Part shown: piece by piece, positions 3,805 to 15,412 of the stretch | How positions within the stretch are numbered: position 1 is the first letter of the stretch | Layout of the letters: the number at the start of each line of letters is the position of its first letter | From: Candidatus Sulfotelmatobacter sp. | GTDB taxonomy: Bacteria > Acidobacteriota > Terriglobia > Terriglobales > Acidobacteriaceae | Length of the DNA: 57,282 nt | Direction: 5' to 3' | Assembly (NCBI GenBank): GCA_050011375.1 | Contig: JBEKJF010000002.1 | Location: 1 to 57,282 of the forward strand | Notes under the pieces: model-generated | Database searches by the model: none | Told to the model about the DNA's origin: nothing | What the model saw: only the letters and a program-made list of their open reading frames with translations | Position numbers and translations under genes: made by a program

Positions 3805-4185
3805 CTATTTCACTTCGACGACGGCACCAGCCTCAGTGAACTTCTTCTTGATGGTCTCAGCCTCGTCCTTGGAAACGCCTTCCTTGATGTTCTTGGGCGC
3901 TCCATCGACCAGTTCCTTAGCTTCCTTCAAGCCCAGGCTGGTGACCTCGCGGACGGCCTTGATTACATTGATCTTATTGGCGCCAACTTCCTTGAGGAGC
4001 ACGGTAAATTCCGTCTTCTCCTCTGCCGGAGCCGCTGCCGCCGCAGCGCCGCCGCCCGCCGCCATCACCGGAGCTGCGGCTGCCGCCGAGACGCCCAGGC
4101 GCGCTTCCAGTTTCTTCACCAGTTGCGCCGCATCCAGCAGCGACAACCCTACGATTGAATCCTCTATCTGTTGCAGGTCTGCCAT
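3805..4185 (-). CDS. rplL: 50S ribosomal protein L7/L12
   Basis: 126 aa with an Ala-rich hinge and a C-terminal [45 protein letters not shown]. Confidence 0.97.
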
Positions 4186-4355
4186 GTTAGTTTCTCCACT
4201 CTTCGAGTTATGAATTTGCTTGCTTTCGTCATCGTCGGCCGGGTTTCCAGTGCGGCAAGCTCATTTCCAGTCGCCAGACAACGCCTGGAGCAGAACCGCG
4301 CAACCCCTGACCTCGGATGACCAAATCTCTTTAGCACTGCCGACCGCCGAGACTC

Positions 4356-4940
4356 TTAAGCCTGCGCTTCCGCAGGGGCCTCGGTCGCAGGAACTTCGGC
4401 TGCAGGGCCGCCGCCAGCGAACTTGCCCTTCTCTACGCCTTGCCCGATAACCACAGCGATGTCGCGTCCCACGGCGTTCATCACCGTAACCAGTCGTTGC
4501 GCCGGAGAATTGATCAGGAACAGCAGCTTGGCGTAAATCTCTTCCTTCGACGGCATGCTGGCCAGCGCCTCGATCTCTTTGATCGAAATCACCCGGCCTT
4601 CGACCACGCCCACCTTAAAGGTGAACTCGGGCGTGTCTTTGGCGTACTTGGTGAGCGCCTTGGCCATCGCCACGGGGTCACCCGTAGTGTAAGCGATCGA
4701 GGTCACGCCAGTCAGGTTTTTCAACCCTTCCTCGATCTTCGTGCCCTTGCCGGCAAGCTCGGCCAGCGTGTTCTTCACCACTTGATATTTCGCGCCCGCA
4801 CCGCGCAGGGCCTTGCGCAGCTCGTAATCCTGGGCCACGGTCATCTTGCTGTAGGTGGCGACGACAGCATTCGAAACATTCTTCAGTTCCGAGCTCAGCT
4901 TCTCAACCTGCTCTTTTTTTCTAGCTTTAGTAACTGGCAT
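4356..4940 (-). CDS. rplJ: 50S ribosomal protein L10
   Basis: 194 aa with L10-like sequence and position upstream of rplL. It has an Ala/Pro/Glu-rich C-terminal tail. Confidence 0.93.
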   Translation of the reverse strand: MPVTKARKKEQVEKLSSELKNVSNAVVATYSKMTVAQDYELRKALRGAGAKYQVVKNTLAELAGKGTKIEEGLKNLTGVTSIAYTTGDPVAMAKALTKYAKDTPEFTFKVGVVEGRVISIKEIEALASMPSKEEIYAKLLFLINSPAQRLVTVMNAVGRDIAVVIGQGVEKGKFAGGGPAAEVPATEAPAEAQA

Positions 4941-7393: not shown

Positions 7394-7669
7394 TCAGTGG
7401 CTCCCGAAATAGCTGTACAAAAACGTGACGCCCCTCTGGATCACATTATCGATGATGAAAAAATAAACGCCGAAAATGAACACCGTGACCACCACCACCG
7501 CGGTGGTGCCGCGCACTTCCTTCCACGACGGCGCAGTGACCTTGCGCATCTCGGAACGCACGTCGTTGTAAAACGACTTGGTCCGCTCCGGCCAGACCTT
7601 GATCCGGTCGAGAAAACTCTCACCGGCGGTTGCGATCGACGTTGTCATCTTCTTTGTCTCCACTGCCAT
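7394..7669 (-). CDS. secE: Preprotein translocase subunit SecE
   Basis: 91 aa from ATG 7669 (MAVETKK...) with a single C-terminal TM ([21 protein letters not shown]), positioned before nusG. The longer track ORF would overlap the tRNA. Confidence 0.85.
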
Positions 7670-7711
7670 ACTGCTCCTGTCCTGACCGTTTCCCAGCATC
7701 CTTCCAAAATC

Positions 7712-7787
7712 TGGCAGGGGCGGAGGGATTCGAACCCCCAAGTTCGGTTTTGGAGACCGACAGTTTAACCGTTGAGCTTACGCCCCT
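7712..7787 (-). tRNA. tRNA-Trp (anticodon CCA), 76 nt with encoded 3' CCA
   Basis: Minus-strand sequence is AGGGGCGTAAGCTCAACGGTTAAACTGTCGGTCTCCAAAACCGAACTTGGGGGTTCGAATCCCTCCGCCCCTGCCA. The acceptor stem AGGGGCG/CGCCCCT, anticodon stem GTCGG/CCGAC with loop CTCCAAA, and T-arm GGGGG-TTCGAAT-CCCTC are all present. Confidence 0.95.
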
Positions 7788-7795
7788 GTAAGCAT

Positions 7796-7896
7796 TTGGT
7801 AATTTTGCAATTGAGTAATTTGGTAGTTTGAGAACCTTCTTCCCAGTACCGCGCGGTTTTCAATTACCAAATTACAAAATTACCCAATTACTAAAT
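7796..7896. repeat. AT-rich 7-8-nt word array (GGTAATT family), direct then inverted, forming a long imperfect palindrome between rpmG and tRNA-Trp
   Basis: The left arm is ggtaattttgcaattgagtaatttggtag. The right arm is caattaccaaattacaaaattacccaattactaaatc. Confidence 0.8.
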
Positions 7897-8049
7897 CTAT
7901 TTCACTTCTTTGTGCGGCGTGTGCTTGCGGCAACGGTTGCAGAACTTCTTAAATTCCAGCCGTTCCGTCGTCGTCTTCCGGTTCTTGGTGGTCGAATAAT
8001 TCCGCTCTTTGCAATCACCGCACTGTAACGTAACAATTTCTCGGGGCAT
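7897..8049 (-). CDS. rpmG: 50S ribosomal protein L33
   Basis: Not in the ORF track (50 aa). Translation is [50 protein letters not shown], with CxxC...CxxC, and ends at a TAG stop. Confidence 0.93.
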
Positions 8050-8061
8050 CGCTCACTCCAA

Positions 8062-8096
8062 AACAGCTTCTAGCTGTTAGCTCCTAGCCTTTAGCT
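8062..8096. repeat. Five phased heptamers NNTAGCT (mRNA sense AGCUARR-like) upstream of rpmG
   Basis: aacagct tctagct gttagct cctagcc tttagct. Confidence 0.85.
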
Positions 8097-8098
8097 TT

Positions 8099-8136
8099 GT
8101 CATCCTAAGGCGACCGGTTCTCATCGCCCAAGGATC
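8099..8136. repeat. GTCATCC...GGATC family short palindromic repeat
   Basis: gtcatcctaaggcgaccggttctcatcgcccaaggatc. The same termini occur at 24527-24571, 24597-24639 (inverted) and 51338-51397. Confidence 0.7.
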
Positions 8137-8168
8137 TATCCGGTTTTACTGACGGCTGACAGCTGCCT

Positions 8169-9365
<1,197 letters not shown>

Positions 9366-9388
9366 TTCCTAGCTCCAGTAAAACAGTC

Positions 9389-9925
9389 CTATTGCTTCGC
9401 TGATCTCCTACTCGCGATGTACTCGGCCATATCGCCGTTAATCTCAAGCCGCGGGAAGCGCTCTGGATCCCAATAGCTTGCCCCACCCTTAGAAAGTTGC
9501 TCAGCAACAAACTCTCTAACGATGCTCTTCTCGTTGAGCTTGTGATAGTCGAAAGCCATGCTCGCCAGCGTAGTGACTTCTACCCAAACCCGCTTCGCAC
9601 CTTGTCCCGATTTAAGGTCGACCGGGTACAGTACCGCCATTCGCGGAGCGCCCGTCCCTGGGATGTCATAAGCCTGCGCTGGCTGGCCCACATTCTCAAT
9701 TTCCCAATGCGCCCGGACTAAAGTCTTGACTTTTGGATTTTCGGACTTCACCGCTTCAGCGATGCGACCAAACTCCGGCAGCTTTGTGCTATCGCGGGCT
9801 ACGAGCTCGACAAAAAAATCATCCTCAAGATCGAGGAACCGGGATTCGCCCTTGTCGAGATAAGGGAGCAGCCCAGCCTGATTCAGCCGCCCCTCCATCT
9901 GCGCTTGTAAATCGATTGCTGCCAT
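9389..9925 (-). CDS. Hypothetical protein, 178 aa, with no motif I can recognise
   Basis: ORF co-directional inside the fusA-tuf spacer, 11 nt after the HEPN-like gene and 23 nt before tuf. Its composition is protein-like. Confidence 0.65.
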   Translation of the reverse strand: MAAIDLQAQMEGRLNQAGLLPYLDKGESRFLDLEDDFFVELVARDSTKLPEFGRIAEAVKSENPKVKTLVRAHWEIENVGQPAQAYDIPGTGAPRMAVLYPVDLKSGQGAKRVWVEVTTLASMAFDYHKLNEKSIVREFVAEQLSKGGASYWDPERFPRLEINGDMAEYIASRRSAKQ

Positions 9926-9936
9926 AACTAGAACCC

Positions 9937-10314
9937 TTAACCCCTCGCGTTCCGCTCAATCTCACGAAGAATGCGATTAAACACCGAAAGCCCCTCGTCA
10001 ACCTGCCGCCTAACGTCTAGCCTGAACTGTTCCAAATTTCCCTTGAACTCCCTCTCCACAAAGTTCGGATCGTAGTCCGCTTGCGACCGCAGTTGCTGTA
10101 ACTTCTCCACTTGCGCTTCTAGTTCCAAATCAACGCTTCCGAGCCTCTTCGCAATATCGCTGTGGCTAACCTTTCCAAAGAGCACATTCGCAGCGTGAAA
10201 GATCGAGTAGTACGATCTCGACAAAGCATTCCTCAGCGCCGCTTCGCTCGATCCGTCCGCCAATTCCCGCAACGCCTTTGCCAGTTCAAGCCGTGAATCA
10301 ACCACATCTCTCAT
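9937..10314 (-). CDS. HEPN-domain-like protein, 125 aa
   Basis: The helical pattern RSYYSIFHAANVL...SHSDIAKRL...LQQLRSQADYDP matches the classical HEPN (kanamycin-NT C-terminal type) layout. The start lies 8 nt after the fusA stop. Confidence 0.65.
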   Translation of the reverse strand: MRDVVDSRLELAKALRELADGSSEAALRNALSRSYYSIFHAANVLFGKVSHSDIAKRLGSVDLELEAQVEKLQQLRSQADYDPNFVEREFKGNLEQFRLDVRRQVDEGLSVFNRILREIERNARG

Positions 10315-10322
10315 CTTACGAA

Positions 10323-12410
<2,088 letters not shown>

Positions 12411-12440
12411 GGCTCTCTAACTCTTTCTGGGCTCCAAGAA

Positions 12441-12489
12441 TTCAGCTTCTAGCTTCTGGCTCCTAGCTAGTCGCTAGAAGCTAGAAGCC
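12441..12489. repeat. Heptamer array plus an inverted copy (potential hairpin) in the rpsG-fusA spacer
   Basis: ttcagct tctagct tctggct cctagct - agtc - gctagaa gctagaa gcc. Confidence 0.85.
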
Positions 12490-12495
12490 GCGTCT

Positions 12496-13000
<505 letters not shown>

Positions 13001-13018
13001 AGAACTTCTGACTTCCGG

Positions 13019-13408
13019 CTACTTCTTATCTCCGCCCTTTTTCGCGCGCTTGGCGCCGTACTTCGATCTTCCCTGCTGGCGTCCGGCCACGCCGACTGCA
13101 TCGAGCGTGCCGCGAATCACGTGATAGCGCACGCCGGGCAGATCCTTCACGCGGCCTCCACGGATCAGGACGATCGAGTGCTCCTGCAGATTGTGGCCTA
13201 CGCCGGGGATGTAGGTTGTAACCTCAATCCCATTGGTCAAGCGCACGCGCGCCACTTTTCGCAGCGCCGAGTTCGGCTTCTTCGGAGTCTGCGTGTACAC
13301 GCGGGTGCAAACTCCGCGCTTCTGCGGACAGCCCTGCAGCGCCGGACTCGCCGTCTTATAACGCGGGCGCTTCCGGCCTTTCGCCACCAATTGATTAAAA
13401 GTAGGCAC
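13019..13408 (-). CDS. rpsL: 30S ribosomal protein S12
   Basis: 129 aa, [13 protein letters not shown]...[22 protein letters not shown] start. Confidence 0.97.
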
Positions 13409-14032
13409 GCTTTGCCGCTCCTTAAATCGCTAAATCGTTCGTTTAAAAACTGCTCACCCAAGCCGCGCGCCGCATTGTGCTCAACCCGACAAACAAGCGG
13501 GCAGAGCGCAGCGCTAGCAGCTTTCCCGGAGTTCACTTCATACTCCGGGCTGGCAGGCCAAATTCGGCCAGCCATGCTTCTCACCGCACACGAATCACGG
13601 AGAGAGATTCTTGGGTACCAACTCTAGATTTATGCTGCCGACGGTGGCGCCCGGCAAAACTCGGGGGCGCTCCGTATCGCCAGCTCTGTCCTGCATATCC
13701 TTTCGCAGACCACTGTCGCGTCTTAACTTCAGGCGCTCGAGCAGCCCTCGTGATAGGGCGAAAGGCAGCGCAGGAACGTTTCAGCGAGGAAAGTTTCCGG
13801 AACTCGAATGCTTGTTACTTCTCCGAAAACGTATTTCTCAAAAGCTCTACCAGAAGTTCCCGCACAACTTTGCGGGACTCACGGCACACACCAAGCCTGG
13901 ATTGACTCGCGGAACCTTACAAATATAGCAAGTGAGTGGAAACATCGTCAACCCTATCTTTTTATATAGGAGTGTCGCAGTTTGAAATCCACAGGGCTTG
14001 AGTCTGCTTCGAGCCCGTGGGAAACCGTGGGC

Positions 14033-14242
14033 ATGGCCAAGGACGACAAATACATCCCCAAAATCAATGATCCTGTTTTCGTGAAAGGGAAGGGTCTTAT
14101 CAGATACGTTGTGGCCGTTGTTGATACCAAAAGGAAAACCGTCGATGTCAGGACGGTTTCAGGTGTCATCGTTCTTACCCGAGGCGTGCCGTGGTCAGAG
14201 CTTCCTATCTGGACGAAAGCCAGAACGCCGTACGGGTCGTGA
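14033..14242 (+). CDS. Hypothetical small protein, 69 aa
   Basis: ATG 14033 (MAKDDKYIPKINDPVF...). Third-position GC looks coding-like by eye. It converges on the Fic stop with a 6-nt gap, and no motif was recognised. Confidence 0.4.
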   Translation: MAKDDKYIPKINDPVFVKGKGLIRYVVAVVDTKRKTVDVRTVSGVIVLTRGVPWSELPIWTKARTPYGS

Positions 14243-14248
14243 GAGAGG

Positions 14249-15412
14249 CTACGGAGGACTGATGGGAAACGATAGTTGAGCTGTGCTCGGCACGAAAGGA
14301 TCAGGCACCGATTTAATATGTTCAAGCCTCAATTTGTCTACTAGGGCCTTCGTTTCGAACGATCCAACATAGACTCTTCCCCTCCGCTCCCCATCCGGTA
14401 TTAGTAATCCAGCATCTACAGCAGCTTTCAAATCGCGACTCGCCGTTACATCGTTCAATTCAGCTAAGTTGCGATAGCTAGAATTACGAACGCGGTATCC
14501 GATTGCGCCATCCGCGATTGCAAAGATCAACCGTTCAGGAAGACCACGACGGGAGATGATCCCTTCGAGTTCCTGCCAAAGCAGGTCGATGACTCTTGTC
14601 CTCATCAGCAAAGTCGTTGCCTGTCGAAAATGAGCGGTCAAATTGAACTGAATCCATGCGCGCGTGCTATTCCTCGGATTCCATGACCCTTCACCAGTCT
14701 GAGCTAGAACGTTGTAGTAGTCCTGAGTGTTTCGTCCGAGATATTCCTCGATTGAGGAAAATTCGGATTCAAGAATCCCCTCTCTCCCGAGAACAAGTGT
14801 TTGTAGACACCGTGCCATTCTCCCGTTTCCATCGGAAAACGGATGAATCATGACCAAATTTAGATGGGCCATCGCTCCCTTAACGAGGGCGTGCGGACAA
14901 TCCTCATCATCATTAAGGTATTCTATCAACTCCTCAATTAAGCCCGGTACCATCTCAACATCAGGGCCTTCGTAAACTACGTCGCCCCTCGCATCATCGC
15001 GAACGTAAACGGTCCCCGGTCTCCAATTTCCCGGATTCTTCTCAAGATCATGCTGGACCATCATAAAATGCAAACCGCGAATAAACCCTTCGCTATAGGC
15101 AAAATTTGGGTCTTTGGTCAGTTGAAGGACGAACGTCATGGCGTAGCGATACCCAGTCACAGCCAGCCAGGATTCGCGGTCTGCCGTCCGTGGTTCTTCG
15201 CCCTCGACCGCCGCGATCGCATCTTCAGCCGTGACGTTATATCCCTCAATACTATTTGAGCCCCGAACGGCGCGAGCTAACGTGTTGCGACGAAGCAGCC
15301 CTTTCCATCGTCGCGGCGTAGCCAAGTTGTATCTCAGCGCCTTTCTCGTTTCCTCAATCCTGGCGATAACGTCCGTTTCAGATTGTGTGAGTTTTTCCGC
15401 TTTGAAGAGCAC
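14249..15412 (-). CDS. Fic family protein (class II, auto-inhibited), probable AMP-transferase with a C-terminal winged-helix region
   Basis: The Fic motif HPFSDGNGRMAR is present. The N-terminal inhibitory-helix motif SNSIEG fits (S/T)xxxE(G/N). 387 aa with a GTG start. Confidence 0.9.
   Translation of the reverse strand: MLFKAEKLTQSETDVIARIEETRKALRYNLATPRRWKGLLRRNTLARAVRGSNSIEGYNVTAEDAIAAVEGEEPRTADRESWLAVTGYRYAMTFVLQLTKDPNFAYSEGFIRGLHFMMVQHDLEKNPGNWRPGTVYVRDDARGDVVYEGPDVEMVPGLIEELIEYLNDDEDCPHALVKGAMAHLNLVMIHPFSDGNGRMARCLQTLVLGREGILESEFSSIEEYLGRNTQDYYNVLAQTGEGSWNPRNSTRAWIQFNLTAHFRQATTLLMRTRVIDLLWQELEGIISRRGLPERLIFAIADGAIGYRVRNSSYRNLAELNDVTASRDLKAAVDAGLLIPDGERRGRVYVGSFETKALVDKLRLEHIKSVPDPFVPSTAQLSFPISPP

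Follow-up and report, generated by a model that had tools for sequence, protein, structure and literature searches.

A HEPN domain gene and a partner gene of an undescribed family form an accessory pair preceding tuf in Acidobacteriota

We analyzed a 57,282-nucleotide stretch of DNA from Candidatus Sulfotelmatobacter sp. (contig JBEKJF010000002.1; hereafter, the window), in which two genes, orfA and orfB, lie between the genes encoding the elongation factors EF-G (fusA) and EF-Tu (tuf). The pair is a conserved and largely undescribed module of a HEPN-T protein and a novel partner, with clear signs of being an exchangeable accessory cassette. Our preferred interpretation, which we regard as quite possible though a little short of probable, is that orfA-orfB represents a horizontally exchanged two-gene conflict module (i.e., of the toxin-antitoxin or abortive-defense kind) in a cargo hotspot located immediately 5' of tuf. 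The toxin-antitoxin or defense function itself is inferred.

A gene pair between fusA and tuf

The pair, its conserved sites, and its two flanking genes are as follows.

9937..10314, minus strand: orfA, 125 amino acids, HEPN domain (AF0298-like HEPN-T; PF05168/UPF0332/COG2250), candidate RNase (toxin) subunit, from the open reading frame (ORF) list, Pfam, a PDB profile, and an AlphaFold2 (AF2) model
9389..9925, minus strand: orfB, 178 amino acids, acidic alpha/beta protein and partner of the HEPN protein, from the ORF list, homologues, and an AF2 model
10072..10089, minus strand: orfA codons R76-S-Q-A-D80-Y81 at the C-terminal end of helix 3, from the alignment and the helix limits of the model
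10162..10164, minus strand: orfA His51 codon, candidate alternative catalytic histidine, from an invariant alignment column, the model, and the literature
9464..9487, minus strand: orfB signature GGASYWDP (G147-P154), from alignments
9704..9715, minus strand: orfB R71-A-H-W74 (VRAHWE), from an alignment of 79 distant members
10323..12410, minus strand: fusA (EF-G), ultraconserved left flank and proposed recombination arm, from the ORF list; its 3' end is near-identical in relatives with other cargo
8169..9365, minus strand: tuf (EF-Tu), constant right-hand neighbor of the pair, from the ORF list and the comparison of loci

An earlier note, made from the letters of this DNA alone, had described two co-directional ORFs of 125 and 178 amino acids between fusA and tuf, with spacers of 8, 11, and 23 nt. 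The ORF coordinates agree with this description (fusA/orfA, 10315-10322; orfA/orfB, 9926-9936; orfB/tuf, 9366-9388).

Both ORFs are genuine genes under purifying selection, since 161 homologues of orfA and 100 homologues of orfB were found and the pairwise ratios of nonsynonymous to synonymous substitution rates (dN/dS) for the pair were 0.01 to 0.17 wherever dS was measurable and unsaturated. Taken gene by gene, the ratios ranged from 0.02 to 0.13 for orfA and from 0.01 to 0.24 for orfB (0.01 to 0.17 at identities of at least 50%). The ORFs might instead be chance frames or decaying remnants in a long fusA-tuf spacer; one relative (locus L074) has a noncoding spacer of about 330 nt in the same gap, and the HEPN gene is frameshifted in three lineages. 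We consider this explanation practically negligible in view of the low dN/dS values over many pairs, our count of >100 full-length homologues for each gene, the confident structure models, and the conserved starts and spacing.

The composition of the pair is modestly foreign-like. Its GC content (orfA, 0.521; orfB, 0.546) is lower than that of fusA (0.587) and tuf (0.586), as had been judged by eye beforehand, although the difference is modest, and the deviation extends to codon usage. The GC content at third codon positions (GC3) is 0.60 to 0.61 for orfA/orfB versus 0.73 to 0.75 for fusA/tuf. The codon adaptation index (CAI; relative to the local translation genes) is 0.47 to 0.48 for the pair, i.e., the lowest in the operon, versus 0.65 to 0.73 for the translation genes and 0.51 to 0.62 for other genes of the window.

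Exchange of the cassette and its position before tuf

The pair is accessory and has been exchanged between lineages. We retrieved close relatives by an exact match to the S12 protein of the window and compared their fusA-tuf gaps. Four loci (L073, L076, L080, and L081) have gaps of 80 to 144 nt that contain hairpin repeats and no gene, L074 has the long noncoding spacer mentioned above, L075/L079 carry an unrelated gene of 113 amino acids (11130-11471), and L077/L078 carry the window's own cassette. These relatives all have almost the same final ~36 nt of fusA and initial ~25 nt of tuf. The gap is hypervariable with near-invariant borders, and the insertion suspected in the earlier note is borne out by close relatives with an empty gap or different cargo. 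The extra proteins encoded in the gaps of L072 and L075/L079 had no Pfam match. The gap repeats of L073, L076, and L080 (about 11087-11220) are inverted and resemble repetitive extragenic palindromic sequences or miniature inverted-repeat transposable elements (REP/MITE-like).

The flanks and the cassette have different histories in several of these genomes. The nearest relatives of the window in the flanks (L075/L079; fusA, 100% amino acid identity and dS of 0.20; rpsG, dS of 0.11) lack the pair. Conversely, L016 (and L005, a locus of a metagenome-assembled genome [MAG]) is distant in the flanks (dS = 0.74 to 0.97), but its cassette differs by a dS of only 0.14 (orfA) and 0.25 (orfB). In a sliding-window comparison of the window and L016, the nucleotide identity peaks at 92 to 99% over the cassette and falls into both flanks. 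In L015, the flank dS is 0.11 to 0.12, and the cassette is identical (dS = 0.00). Pairs with similar flanks and divergent cassettes (e.g., L011 versus the window) are weak evidence of exchange, because codon bias keeps the third positions of fusA/tuf at least 58% identical; the reverse case of L016 is the robust one.

No flanking repeats were detected at the cassette borders (only short chance matches in 9250-10450), and no integrase or transposase gene lies beside the cassette, the neighbors being rpsL, rpsG, fusA, tuf, and rpmG. No relatives were found on viral contigs (IMG/VR). A phage or mobile-element origin was considered and is not supported, given the lack of IMG/VR relatives and flanking repeats.

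The two genes are kept together. We compared about 61 distinct loci, of which 56 had informative downstream sequence. Both orfA and orfB are present in about 58 of the 61, with conserved gene starts and spacing; the intergenic distance is about 5 to 60 nt elsewhere, or the genes overlap. The order HEPN-orfB-tuf is found in 53 of the 56 loci. The upstream neighbor varies: it is fusA in about 30 loci, which continue into rpsJ (L001 and L004) or rpmG-secE (the window and L057), and it is tRNA-Gly or a third gene, orfC, in about 16 loci, i.e., the tRNA Thr-Tyr-Thr-Gly cluster of a tufB-type operon. In the orfB tree, loci of the fusA context are interspersed with loci of the tRNA context. The expectation that the two genes would be conserved side by side thus held in nearly all loci, with the qualification that orfB also occurs without the HEPN gene. 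Similarly, the location in the str operon holds for the window, but the occurrence of the pair after the tRNA cluster as well shows that its tie is to tuf and not to the str operon as such. A pattern scan matched only 9 of 185,579 GTDB species representatives.

The association with tuf extends to distant relatives. At 26 to 33% identity, orfB is still found in tuf operons, at three insertion points in total (i.e., fusA/tuf, tRNA-Gly/tuf, and tRNA-Tyr/tRNA-Thr). L067/L068 have the order HEPN-orfB-tuf-rpsJ, L069 and L071 carry orfB without HEPN between the tRNA-Tyr and tRNA-Thr genes, and L063 and L072 carry a long orfB directly before tuf. The fusA-tuf gap of L072 (5724-7894) contains four genes, which encode proteins of 154 and 95 amino acids, a HEPN protein, and a long orfB protein. 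Only L064-L066 (HEPN plus long orfB) are located away from tuf, beside an ABC transporter.

orfC encodes a conserved protein of about 112 amino acids (e.g., L010:5260-5598, L069:6878-7213, and L082-L090 at about 4120-4670). In many tRNA-context loci, it lies between tRNA-Gly and the HEPN gene; in L061 it follows orfB, and in L069 it immediately precedes tuf. Between tRNA-Gly and tuf (the tRNA-tuf leader), orfC is the gene usually present in related Acidobacteria. Its C terminus reads ...REFYLSKLE..ALRHKFKKLYQYY, it had no Pfam or PDB match, and it is absent from the 57-kb window. All nine relatives that share an identical L33 protein carry an orfC-sized gene (110 to 118 amino acids) directly upstream of tuf and lack HEPN and orfB; when aligned, all nine genes are clear members of the orfC family. 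The C-terminal extension of the long orfB proteins (L063, L064-L066, and L072) is homologous to orfC (tblastn E values, 4e-7 to 6e-6). Of all observations, this fusion most strongly hints that orfB is functionally linked to a resident gene of the tuf operon.

These observations bear on a second interpretation, which we consider unlikely although far from negligible, in which the pair is a translation-linked accessory system and not a selfish module. The orfB protein, with orfC and the HEPN protein, would act on or with EF-Tu, aminoacyl-tRNA, or the cotranscribed tRNAs (e.g., in surveillance or repair of tRNA ends, or in regulating or guarding EF-Tu), and selection would retain it in tuf operons to keep its dosage in step with EF-Tu. 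The distant orfB relatives that remain in tuf operons (L067/L068, L069, L071, L063, and L072), the three distinct insertion points that are all in tuf operons, the orfC-like domain of the long orfB proteins together with the orfC genes directly before tuf in nine of nine related loci, and the strong purifying selection all favor such a system. HepT-type HEPN toxins, moreover, cut the acceptor ends of tRNAs, which are the ligand of EF-Tu. Against it, the closest relatives without the pair have nothing or an unrelated gene in its place, which makes the pair dispensable for translation; the pair also has the lowest codon adaptation of the operon, its exchange is cassette specific, and the HEPN plus long-orfB lineage of L064-L066 resides by an ABC transporter. 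A stronger form of the same idea, which strikes us as improbable, holds that HEPN, orfB, and orfC constitute a hitherto unknown translation-surveillance system functionally wired to EF-Tu and the cotranscribed tRNAs, so that the position before tuf reflects the mechanism; the RNase might, for instance, be switched on when the supply or integrity of EF-Tu or tRNA is disturbed (e.g., by a phage).

The hotspot model accounts for all three insertion points without a functional link. Each of them is a gap whose borders rank among the most conserved sequences of a genome. If orfA-orfB is a mobile conflict module, it may spread by homologous recombination through such arms, or through an anchor in tuf alone; the conservation of tuf, fusA, and the tRNA genes would suffice for them to serve as arms between diverged lineages, and arms so conserved would explain why the pair always lies next to tuf in differing operon contexts. 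We interpret the constant adjacency to tuf, combined with a variable left neighbor, as a likely outcome of recombination anchored in tuf alone.

The gene tuf is itself probably duplicated in these genomes, because many long contigs break inside it; contigs that end inside tuf include L005, L009, L015, L035, L036, and L049. One 1.2-Mb contig (Ga0185299_10000003; L081 and L082) carries tuf-rpmG-secE-nusG-rplKAJL-rpoB twice with identical gene coordinates, one copy after fusA and one after orfC. The double block and the contig ends jointly point to two near-identical tuf copies or larger duplications, with possible assembly ambiguity downstream of tuf. The sequence downstream of tuf in short-read assemblies, including the tuf-rpmG-secE join of the window, could therefore be an assembly choice, while the upstream context, the cassette, and the 5' end of tuf are unique sequence and reliable.

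The HEPN protein and its partner

The orfA product is a HEPN domain protein, by sequence comparison of the AF0298-like HEPN-T type. The match of the window protein to PF05168 is below the cutoff (13.2 bits versus 22 bits; E value, 0.1; positions 24 to 113 of the 117-position profile), but the profile matches 16 of the 31 members of the orfA family, and an orthologue from Korobacteraceae (L001:5617-5991) exceeds the gathering cutoff (23.7 versus 22 bits; E value, 5.6e-5). Many orthologues are annotated as "UPF0332 family" by JGI. A profile of the family matched PDB entries 9xbd/9xbc ("HEPN domain-containing protein"; E values, 0.002 to 0.0035) and, weakly, AF0298; these matches rest on the family profile, the single-sequence search of the PDB having been uninformative. 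The suggestion in the earlier note that the 125-amino-acid protein is HEPN-like is therefore well founded, as the family matches, the orthologue above the cutoff, and the profile matches attest.

The AF2 model (predicted local distance difference test [pLDDT] score, 92) is all helical (residues 2-19, 24-46, 54-61, 63-81, 85-90, and 94-124) and forms four long helices plus a short helix at residues 54-61. Its best Foldseek matches in the PDB are HEPN toxins (7ae9, 7ae8, 7bxo, and 2q00), at E values of 0.5 to 3 and template modeling (TM) scores of 0.41 to 0.55 that are not significant for a small helical bundle. In the alignment of 31 sequences, R33, S34, Y35, Y36, S37, H40, H51, and R76 are invariant and A79, D80, and Y81 are nearly so; the peptide motifs that had been picked out by eye are present and highly conserved.

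The Rx4-6H motif, which is located at the end of HEPN helix 3 (Anantharaman et al. 2013; PMC3710099), is absent in its canonical form from orfA, as no histidine follows R76 (R76-S-Q-A-D80-Y81-D-P). The earlier note was right on this point; however, the absence does not argue against catalysis, because it is typical of the AF0298/AbiV subfamily. In the HEPN-T family exemplified by AF0298, and in AbiV, the basic residue of the motif is retained without the histidine, and a second, strongly conserved histidine is located in the insert between helices 2 and 3, an arrangement that was proposed as an alternative active site (PMC3710099). The orfA protein has exactly this pattern: R76 lies at the end of helix 63-81, H51 lies in the insert (residues 47-62) between helices 24-46 and 63-81, and both are invariant. 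His51 is a candidate alternative catalytic residue acting with R76.

The orfB protein belongs to an undescribed family and not to the minimal nucleotidyltransferases (MNTs), the usual partners of such HEPN proteins. It had no match in Pfam, NCBIfam, PADLOC, or PHROGs, and a profile search of PDB sequences was also empty. The AF2 model is confident (pLDDT, 92.6) and alpha/beta, and its best TM score against PDB and viral (BFVD) folds in Foldseek is ≤0.29. About 75 residues resemble the ferredoxin-like C-terminal domains of CzrB/MamM, with TM scores of 0.45 to 0.52 when normalized to the small target. The absence of an MNT partner and of any recognizable motif in the 178-amino-acid protein, both remarked on earlier, is consistent with these searches.

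Several assignments were tried for orfB and rejected. A diverged MNT is contradicted by the lack of a GS...DxD motif, of Pfam, NCBIfam, or PADLOC matches, and of a polymerase-beta-like fold in Foldseek. A known fold was rejected on the basis of the empty PDB profile search and the low PDB/BFVD TM scores. The HEPN-T protein Cpin_6617, with its fused "dyad of ferredoxin domains" (PMC3710099), had prompted the idea of an internal duplication, which found no support in hhalign (probability of <1% for the two halves of orfB). As for a possible HEPN-orfB fusion (P0302; 378 amino acids), its N-terminal extension did not look HEPN-like by eye.

An exhaustive profile search of 1.84 billion representatives placed the orfB family in 119 clusters at 50% identity, with two length classes (i.e., about 180 to 200 and about 290 to 308 amino acids). 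W74 is the sole invariant residue over 79 distant members. R71, G107, G148, W152, and P154 are near-invariant across the family, the last three within a GGxSYWDP signature. The proteins are acidic (isoelectric point [pI], 5.3 in the window; family median, 5.2). All named sources are Acidobacteriota (Terriglobales, Korobacteraceae, "Candidatus Acidoferrum," and "Acidobacteriaceae" MAGs), and the rest are soil metagenomes.

Under a nontoxic interpretation, which we judge improbable, the HEPN protein may be a noncatalytic RNA- or nucleotide-binding adaptor (like MtlR or nucleotidyltransferase-fused HEPN), with orfB as the effector or enzyme of a two-subunit complex. It would fit the missing canonical histidine, the precedent that motif-less HEPN domains can be noncatalytic binders and that HEPN is the substrate-binding subunit of nucleotidyltransferases (PMC3710099), and the conserved polar and aromatic residues of orfB (R71, W74, Y151, W152, and D153), which could line a ligand pocket. 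However, R76, D80, Y81, H40, and H51 are invariant or nearly so, which is the pattern proposed as an alternative active site (PMC3710099), and orfB has a single invariant residue with no obvious catalytic constellation over the 79 distant members, and Foldseek detected no enzyme-like fold for it.

The decay of the pair is asymmetric. Three independent loci have a frameshift in the HEPN gene (L009:5614-5989 [= L035:6614-6989], L025:184-557, and L046:103-458), and orfB is intact in all of them. The frameshifts all fall within residues about 66 to 75 (~10 codons), just before R76. An intact HEPN gene without orfB was not seen among the loci compared, although this search was not exhaustive. Such a pattern would be expected if the HEPN protein were harmful and orfB protective, although the numbers are small; the frameshifts could be toxin inactivation, a mutational hotspot, or assembly error. 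orfB is a candidate antitoxin or regulator of the HEPN protein.

Operon context, possible mechanism, and known systems

The pair is part of a minus-strand run of rpsL (13019-13408), rpsG (12496-12966), fusA, orfA, orfB, and tuf, followed by rpmG (7897-8049), tRNA-Trp (7712-7787), and secE, so that the str operon runs straight into the rpmG-secE-nusG cluster on the contig. Other features of this region are as follows.

13922..13951, minus strand: sigma-70-like promoter match upstream of rpsL, presumed str-operon promoter, from a consensus match only
12496..13408, minus strand: rpsL and rpsG, upstream genes of the same operon, from the ORF list
7394..8049, minus strand: rpmG, tRNA-Trp, and secE downstream of tuf, from the ORF list and a tRNA search

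The match at 13951..13922 is the sole sigma-70-like promoter in 7800-14300, with none inside or beside orfA-orfB, and the promoter and terminator scan of the same interval found nothing that separates the pair transcriptionally from fusA or tuf. Cotranscription with the str operon is plausible on this evidence. A weak terminator-like hairpin with a T-run lies inside orfB (9822-9837, minus strand; codons LDLEDDFF); it is probably a chance match, because the region contains fewer such sites overall than expected from shuffling. An Rfam scan of the locus yielded tRNA-Trp and no regulatory RNA. The spacer between rpmG and tRNA-Trp (7792-7893) is hairpin forming, with subthreshold Rfam matches to microRNA precursors (E values, 0.07 to 0.08), and is most likely a plain stem-loop or terminator.

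Two other genes in or near core operons were noticed. Just upstream of the presumed str promoter, a gene for a Fic/DOC-family protein of 387 amino acids (14249-15412, minus strand; PF02661, E value of 1.4e-14) has a foreign-like composition (GC, 0.51; GC3, 0.51; CAI, 0.42). It is present in the window strain, L077, L078, and L080 and absent from L015 and L016; since L080 has the Fic gene and an empty fusA-tuf gap, there is no linkage between this gene and the HEPN pair. EF-Tu is a known target of Doc-type Fic proteins. In one relative (L084:7324-7713), a 129-amino-acid retropepsin-like aspartyl protease gene (Asp_protease_2; E value, 5.8e-5; 24.2 bits, just under the 24.3-bit cutoff) lies between nusG and rplK, i.e., a small accessory gene in a core operon.

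If the pair is a conflict module, a dimer of the HEPN protein would act as a metal-independent RNase using R76 and His51, with translation RNAs (i.e., tRNA or rRNA) as its likely targets, as for HepT and AbiV, and orfB would bind and restrain it. We propose orfB as the restraint because some lineages retain it by itself and the frameshifts are in the HEPN gene. Without a promoter of its own, the module would depend on str/tuf operon transcription for the supply and the ratio of both proteins, and a shutoff of host transcription (by a phage or the stringent response) may unbalance the pair.

Among known families, orfA most resembles the AF0298-like HEPN-T proteins (COG2250/UPF0332) in its size of ~125 amino acids, the four long helices of its model, "YYxxFHAA" motif in helix 2, arginine ending helix 3 without the canonical histidine, and conserved histidine in the insert between helices 2 and 3. 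The usual partner of COG2250 proteins is a COG1708 MNT encoded upstream, and these proteins are enriched in thermophiles (PMC2701414). In contrast, orfA comes from mesophilic soil Acidobacteriota, its partner, which is encoded downstream, is another protein, and the orfA protein of the window does not reach the Pfam cutoff. With the HEPN-MNT modules (HepT-MntA), orfA-orfB shares a two-gene arrangement with a small HEPN protein, a patchy distribution, the capacity for insertion into unrelated operons, and a tyrosine (Y81) right after the R motif. This tyrosine was proposed as a nucleotidylation site in MNT-associated HEPN proteins (PMC3710099), and HEPN-MNT modules inserted inside biosynthetic operons have been described (PMC2701414). 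The differences lie in orfB, which is no nucleotidyltransferase and has neither GS...DxD nor a polymerase-beta-like fold, and in the HEPN subtype, which is HEPN-T and not DUF86.

The pair is also reminiscent of generic type II toxin-antitoxin systems, as its two small, co-directional, and tightly spaced genes are kept as a pair, distributed patchily (presence varies among relatives with identical S12), and horizontally mobile. AbiV, an abortive infection protein of Lactococcus, is an RNase that degrades rRNA and is restrained by a co-encoded antitoxin (preprint, bioRxiv 10.1101/2024.05.05.592566). Its HEPN domain is the same variant as that of orfA, with the arginine kept, the histidine absent, and a second histidine present (PMC3710099); unlike the orfB protein, the AbiV antitoxin is an RNA, and the likeness of orfA to AbiV lies in the motif pattern and not in a demonstrated sequence similarity. 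In its mode of exchange, the pair is comparable to the minimal mobile elements of Neisseria (PMC3787668): the cargo varies between the same conserved flanks in the closest relatives, identical cargo occurs in distant genomes, and there are no integrases, transposases, or repeats, exchange proceeding through the flanks (PMC3787668). The hotspot differs in that it is the str operon or the tRNA-tuf leader of uncultured Acidobacteriota, and the same cargo is also found at another site with only the tuf flank in common. EF-Tu-centered conflict systems (i.e., the Doc/Fic kinase-AMPylases and the Lit protease with its Gol peptide) have proximity to tuf in common with the pair; orfA-orfB has no sequence or fold relation to them, and an action on EF-Tu would be pure speculation.

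Several points weigh against a conflict module. The distant relatives in tuf operons at 26 to 33% identity, one arrangement being between two tRNA genes without HEPN, and the orfC fusion suggest a functional and not only positional tie to the tuf operon. Overall, the identities of the cassette and the flanks correlate positively (Spearman, 0.60), which indicates largely vertical inheritance interrupted by episodes of replacement. The canonical Rx4-6H motif is lacking, as discussed above. The pair had no significant model in PADLOC-DB 2.0, to which orfA showed only a marginal match (HEPN_IX; E value, 0.017; 13.2 bits) and orfB none at all. The HEPN gene precedes its partner (orfB is 3'), the reverse of the order in HEPN-MNT modules and most type II systems. 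Finally, unlike generic type II systems, the pair has no promoter or autoregulation signal of its own and no DNA-binding antitoxin; a Pfam scan detected no helix-turn-helix (HTH), ribbon-helix-helix (RHH), or AbrB domain in orfA or orfB.

RNA-targeting toxins and defense effectors include HEPN modules as a major class, and to our knowledge the HEPN-T (COG2250) branch is essentially uncharacterized; our literature search found no paper that links HEPN, tuf, and Acidobacteria. The pair would thus represent a new two-component HEPN system, possibly a three-component one with orfC, whose partner is neither an MNT nor a member of a described family. Our comparison also suggests that, in uncultured soil Acidobacteria, accessory conflict genes can be exchanged at the tRNA-tuf leader and within rpsL-rpsG-fusA-tuf, which is the cell's most conserved operon; the conservation of the flanks, sufficient for recombination between lineages, is the probable cause of such transfer. 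Should the tuf link be functional, the module would couple an RNase in a new way to the state of the translation apparatus.

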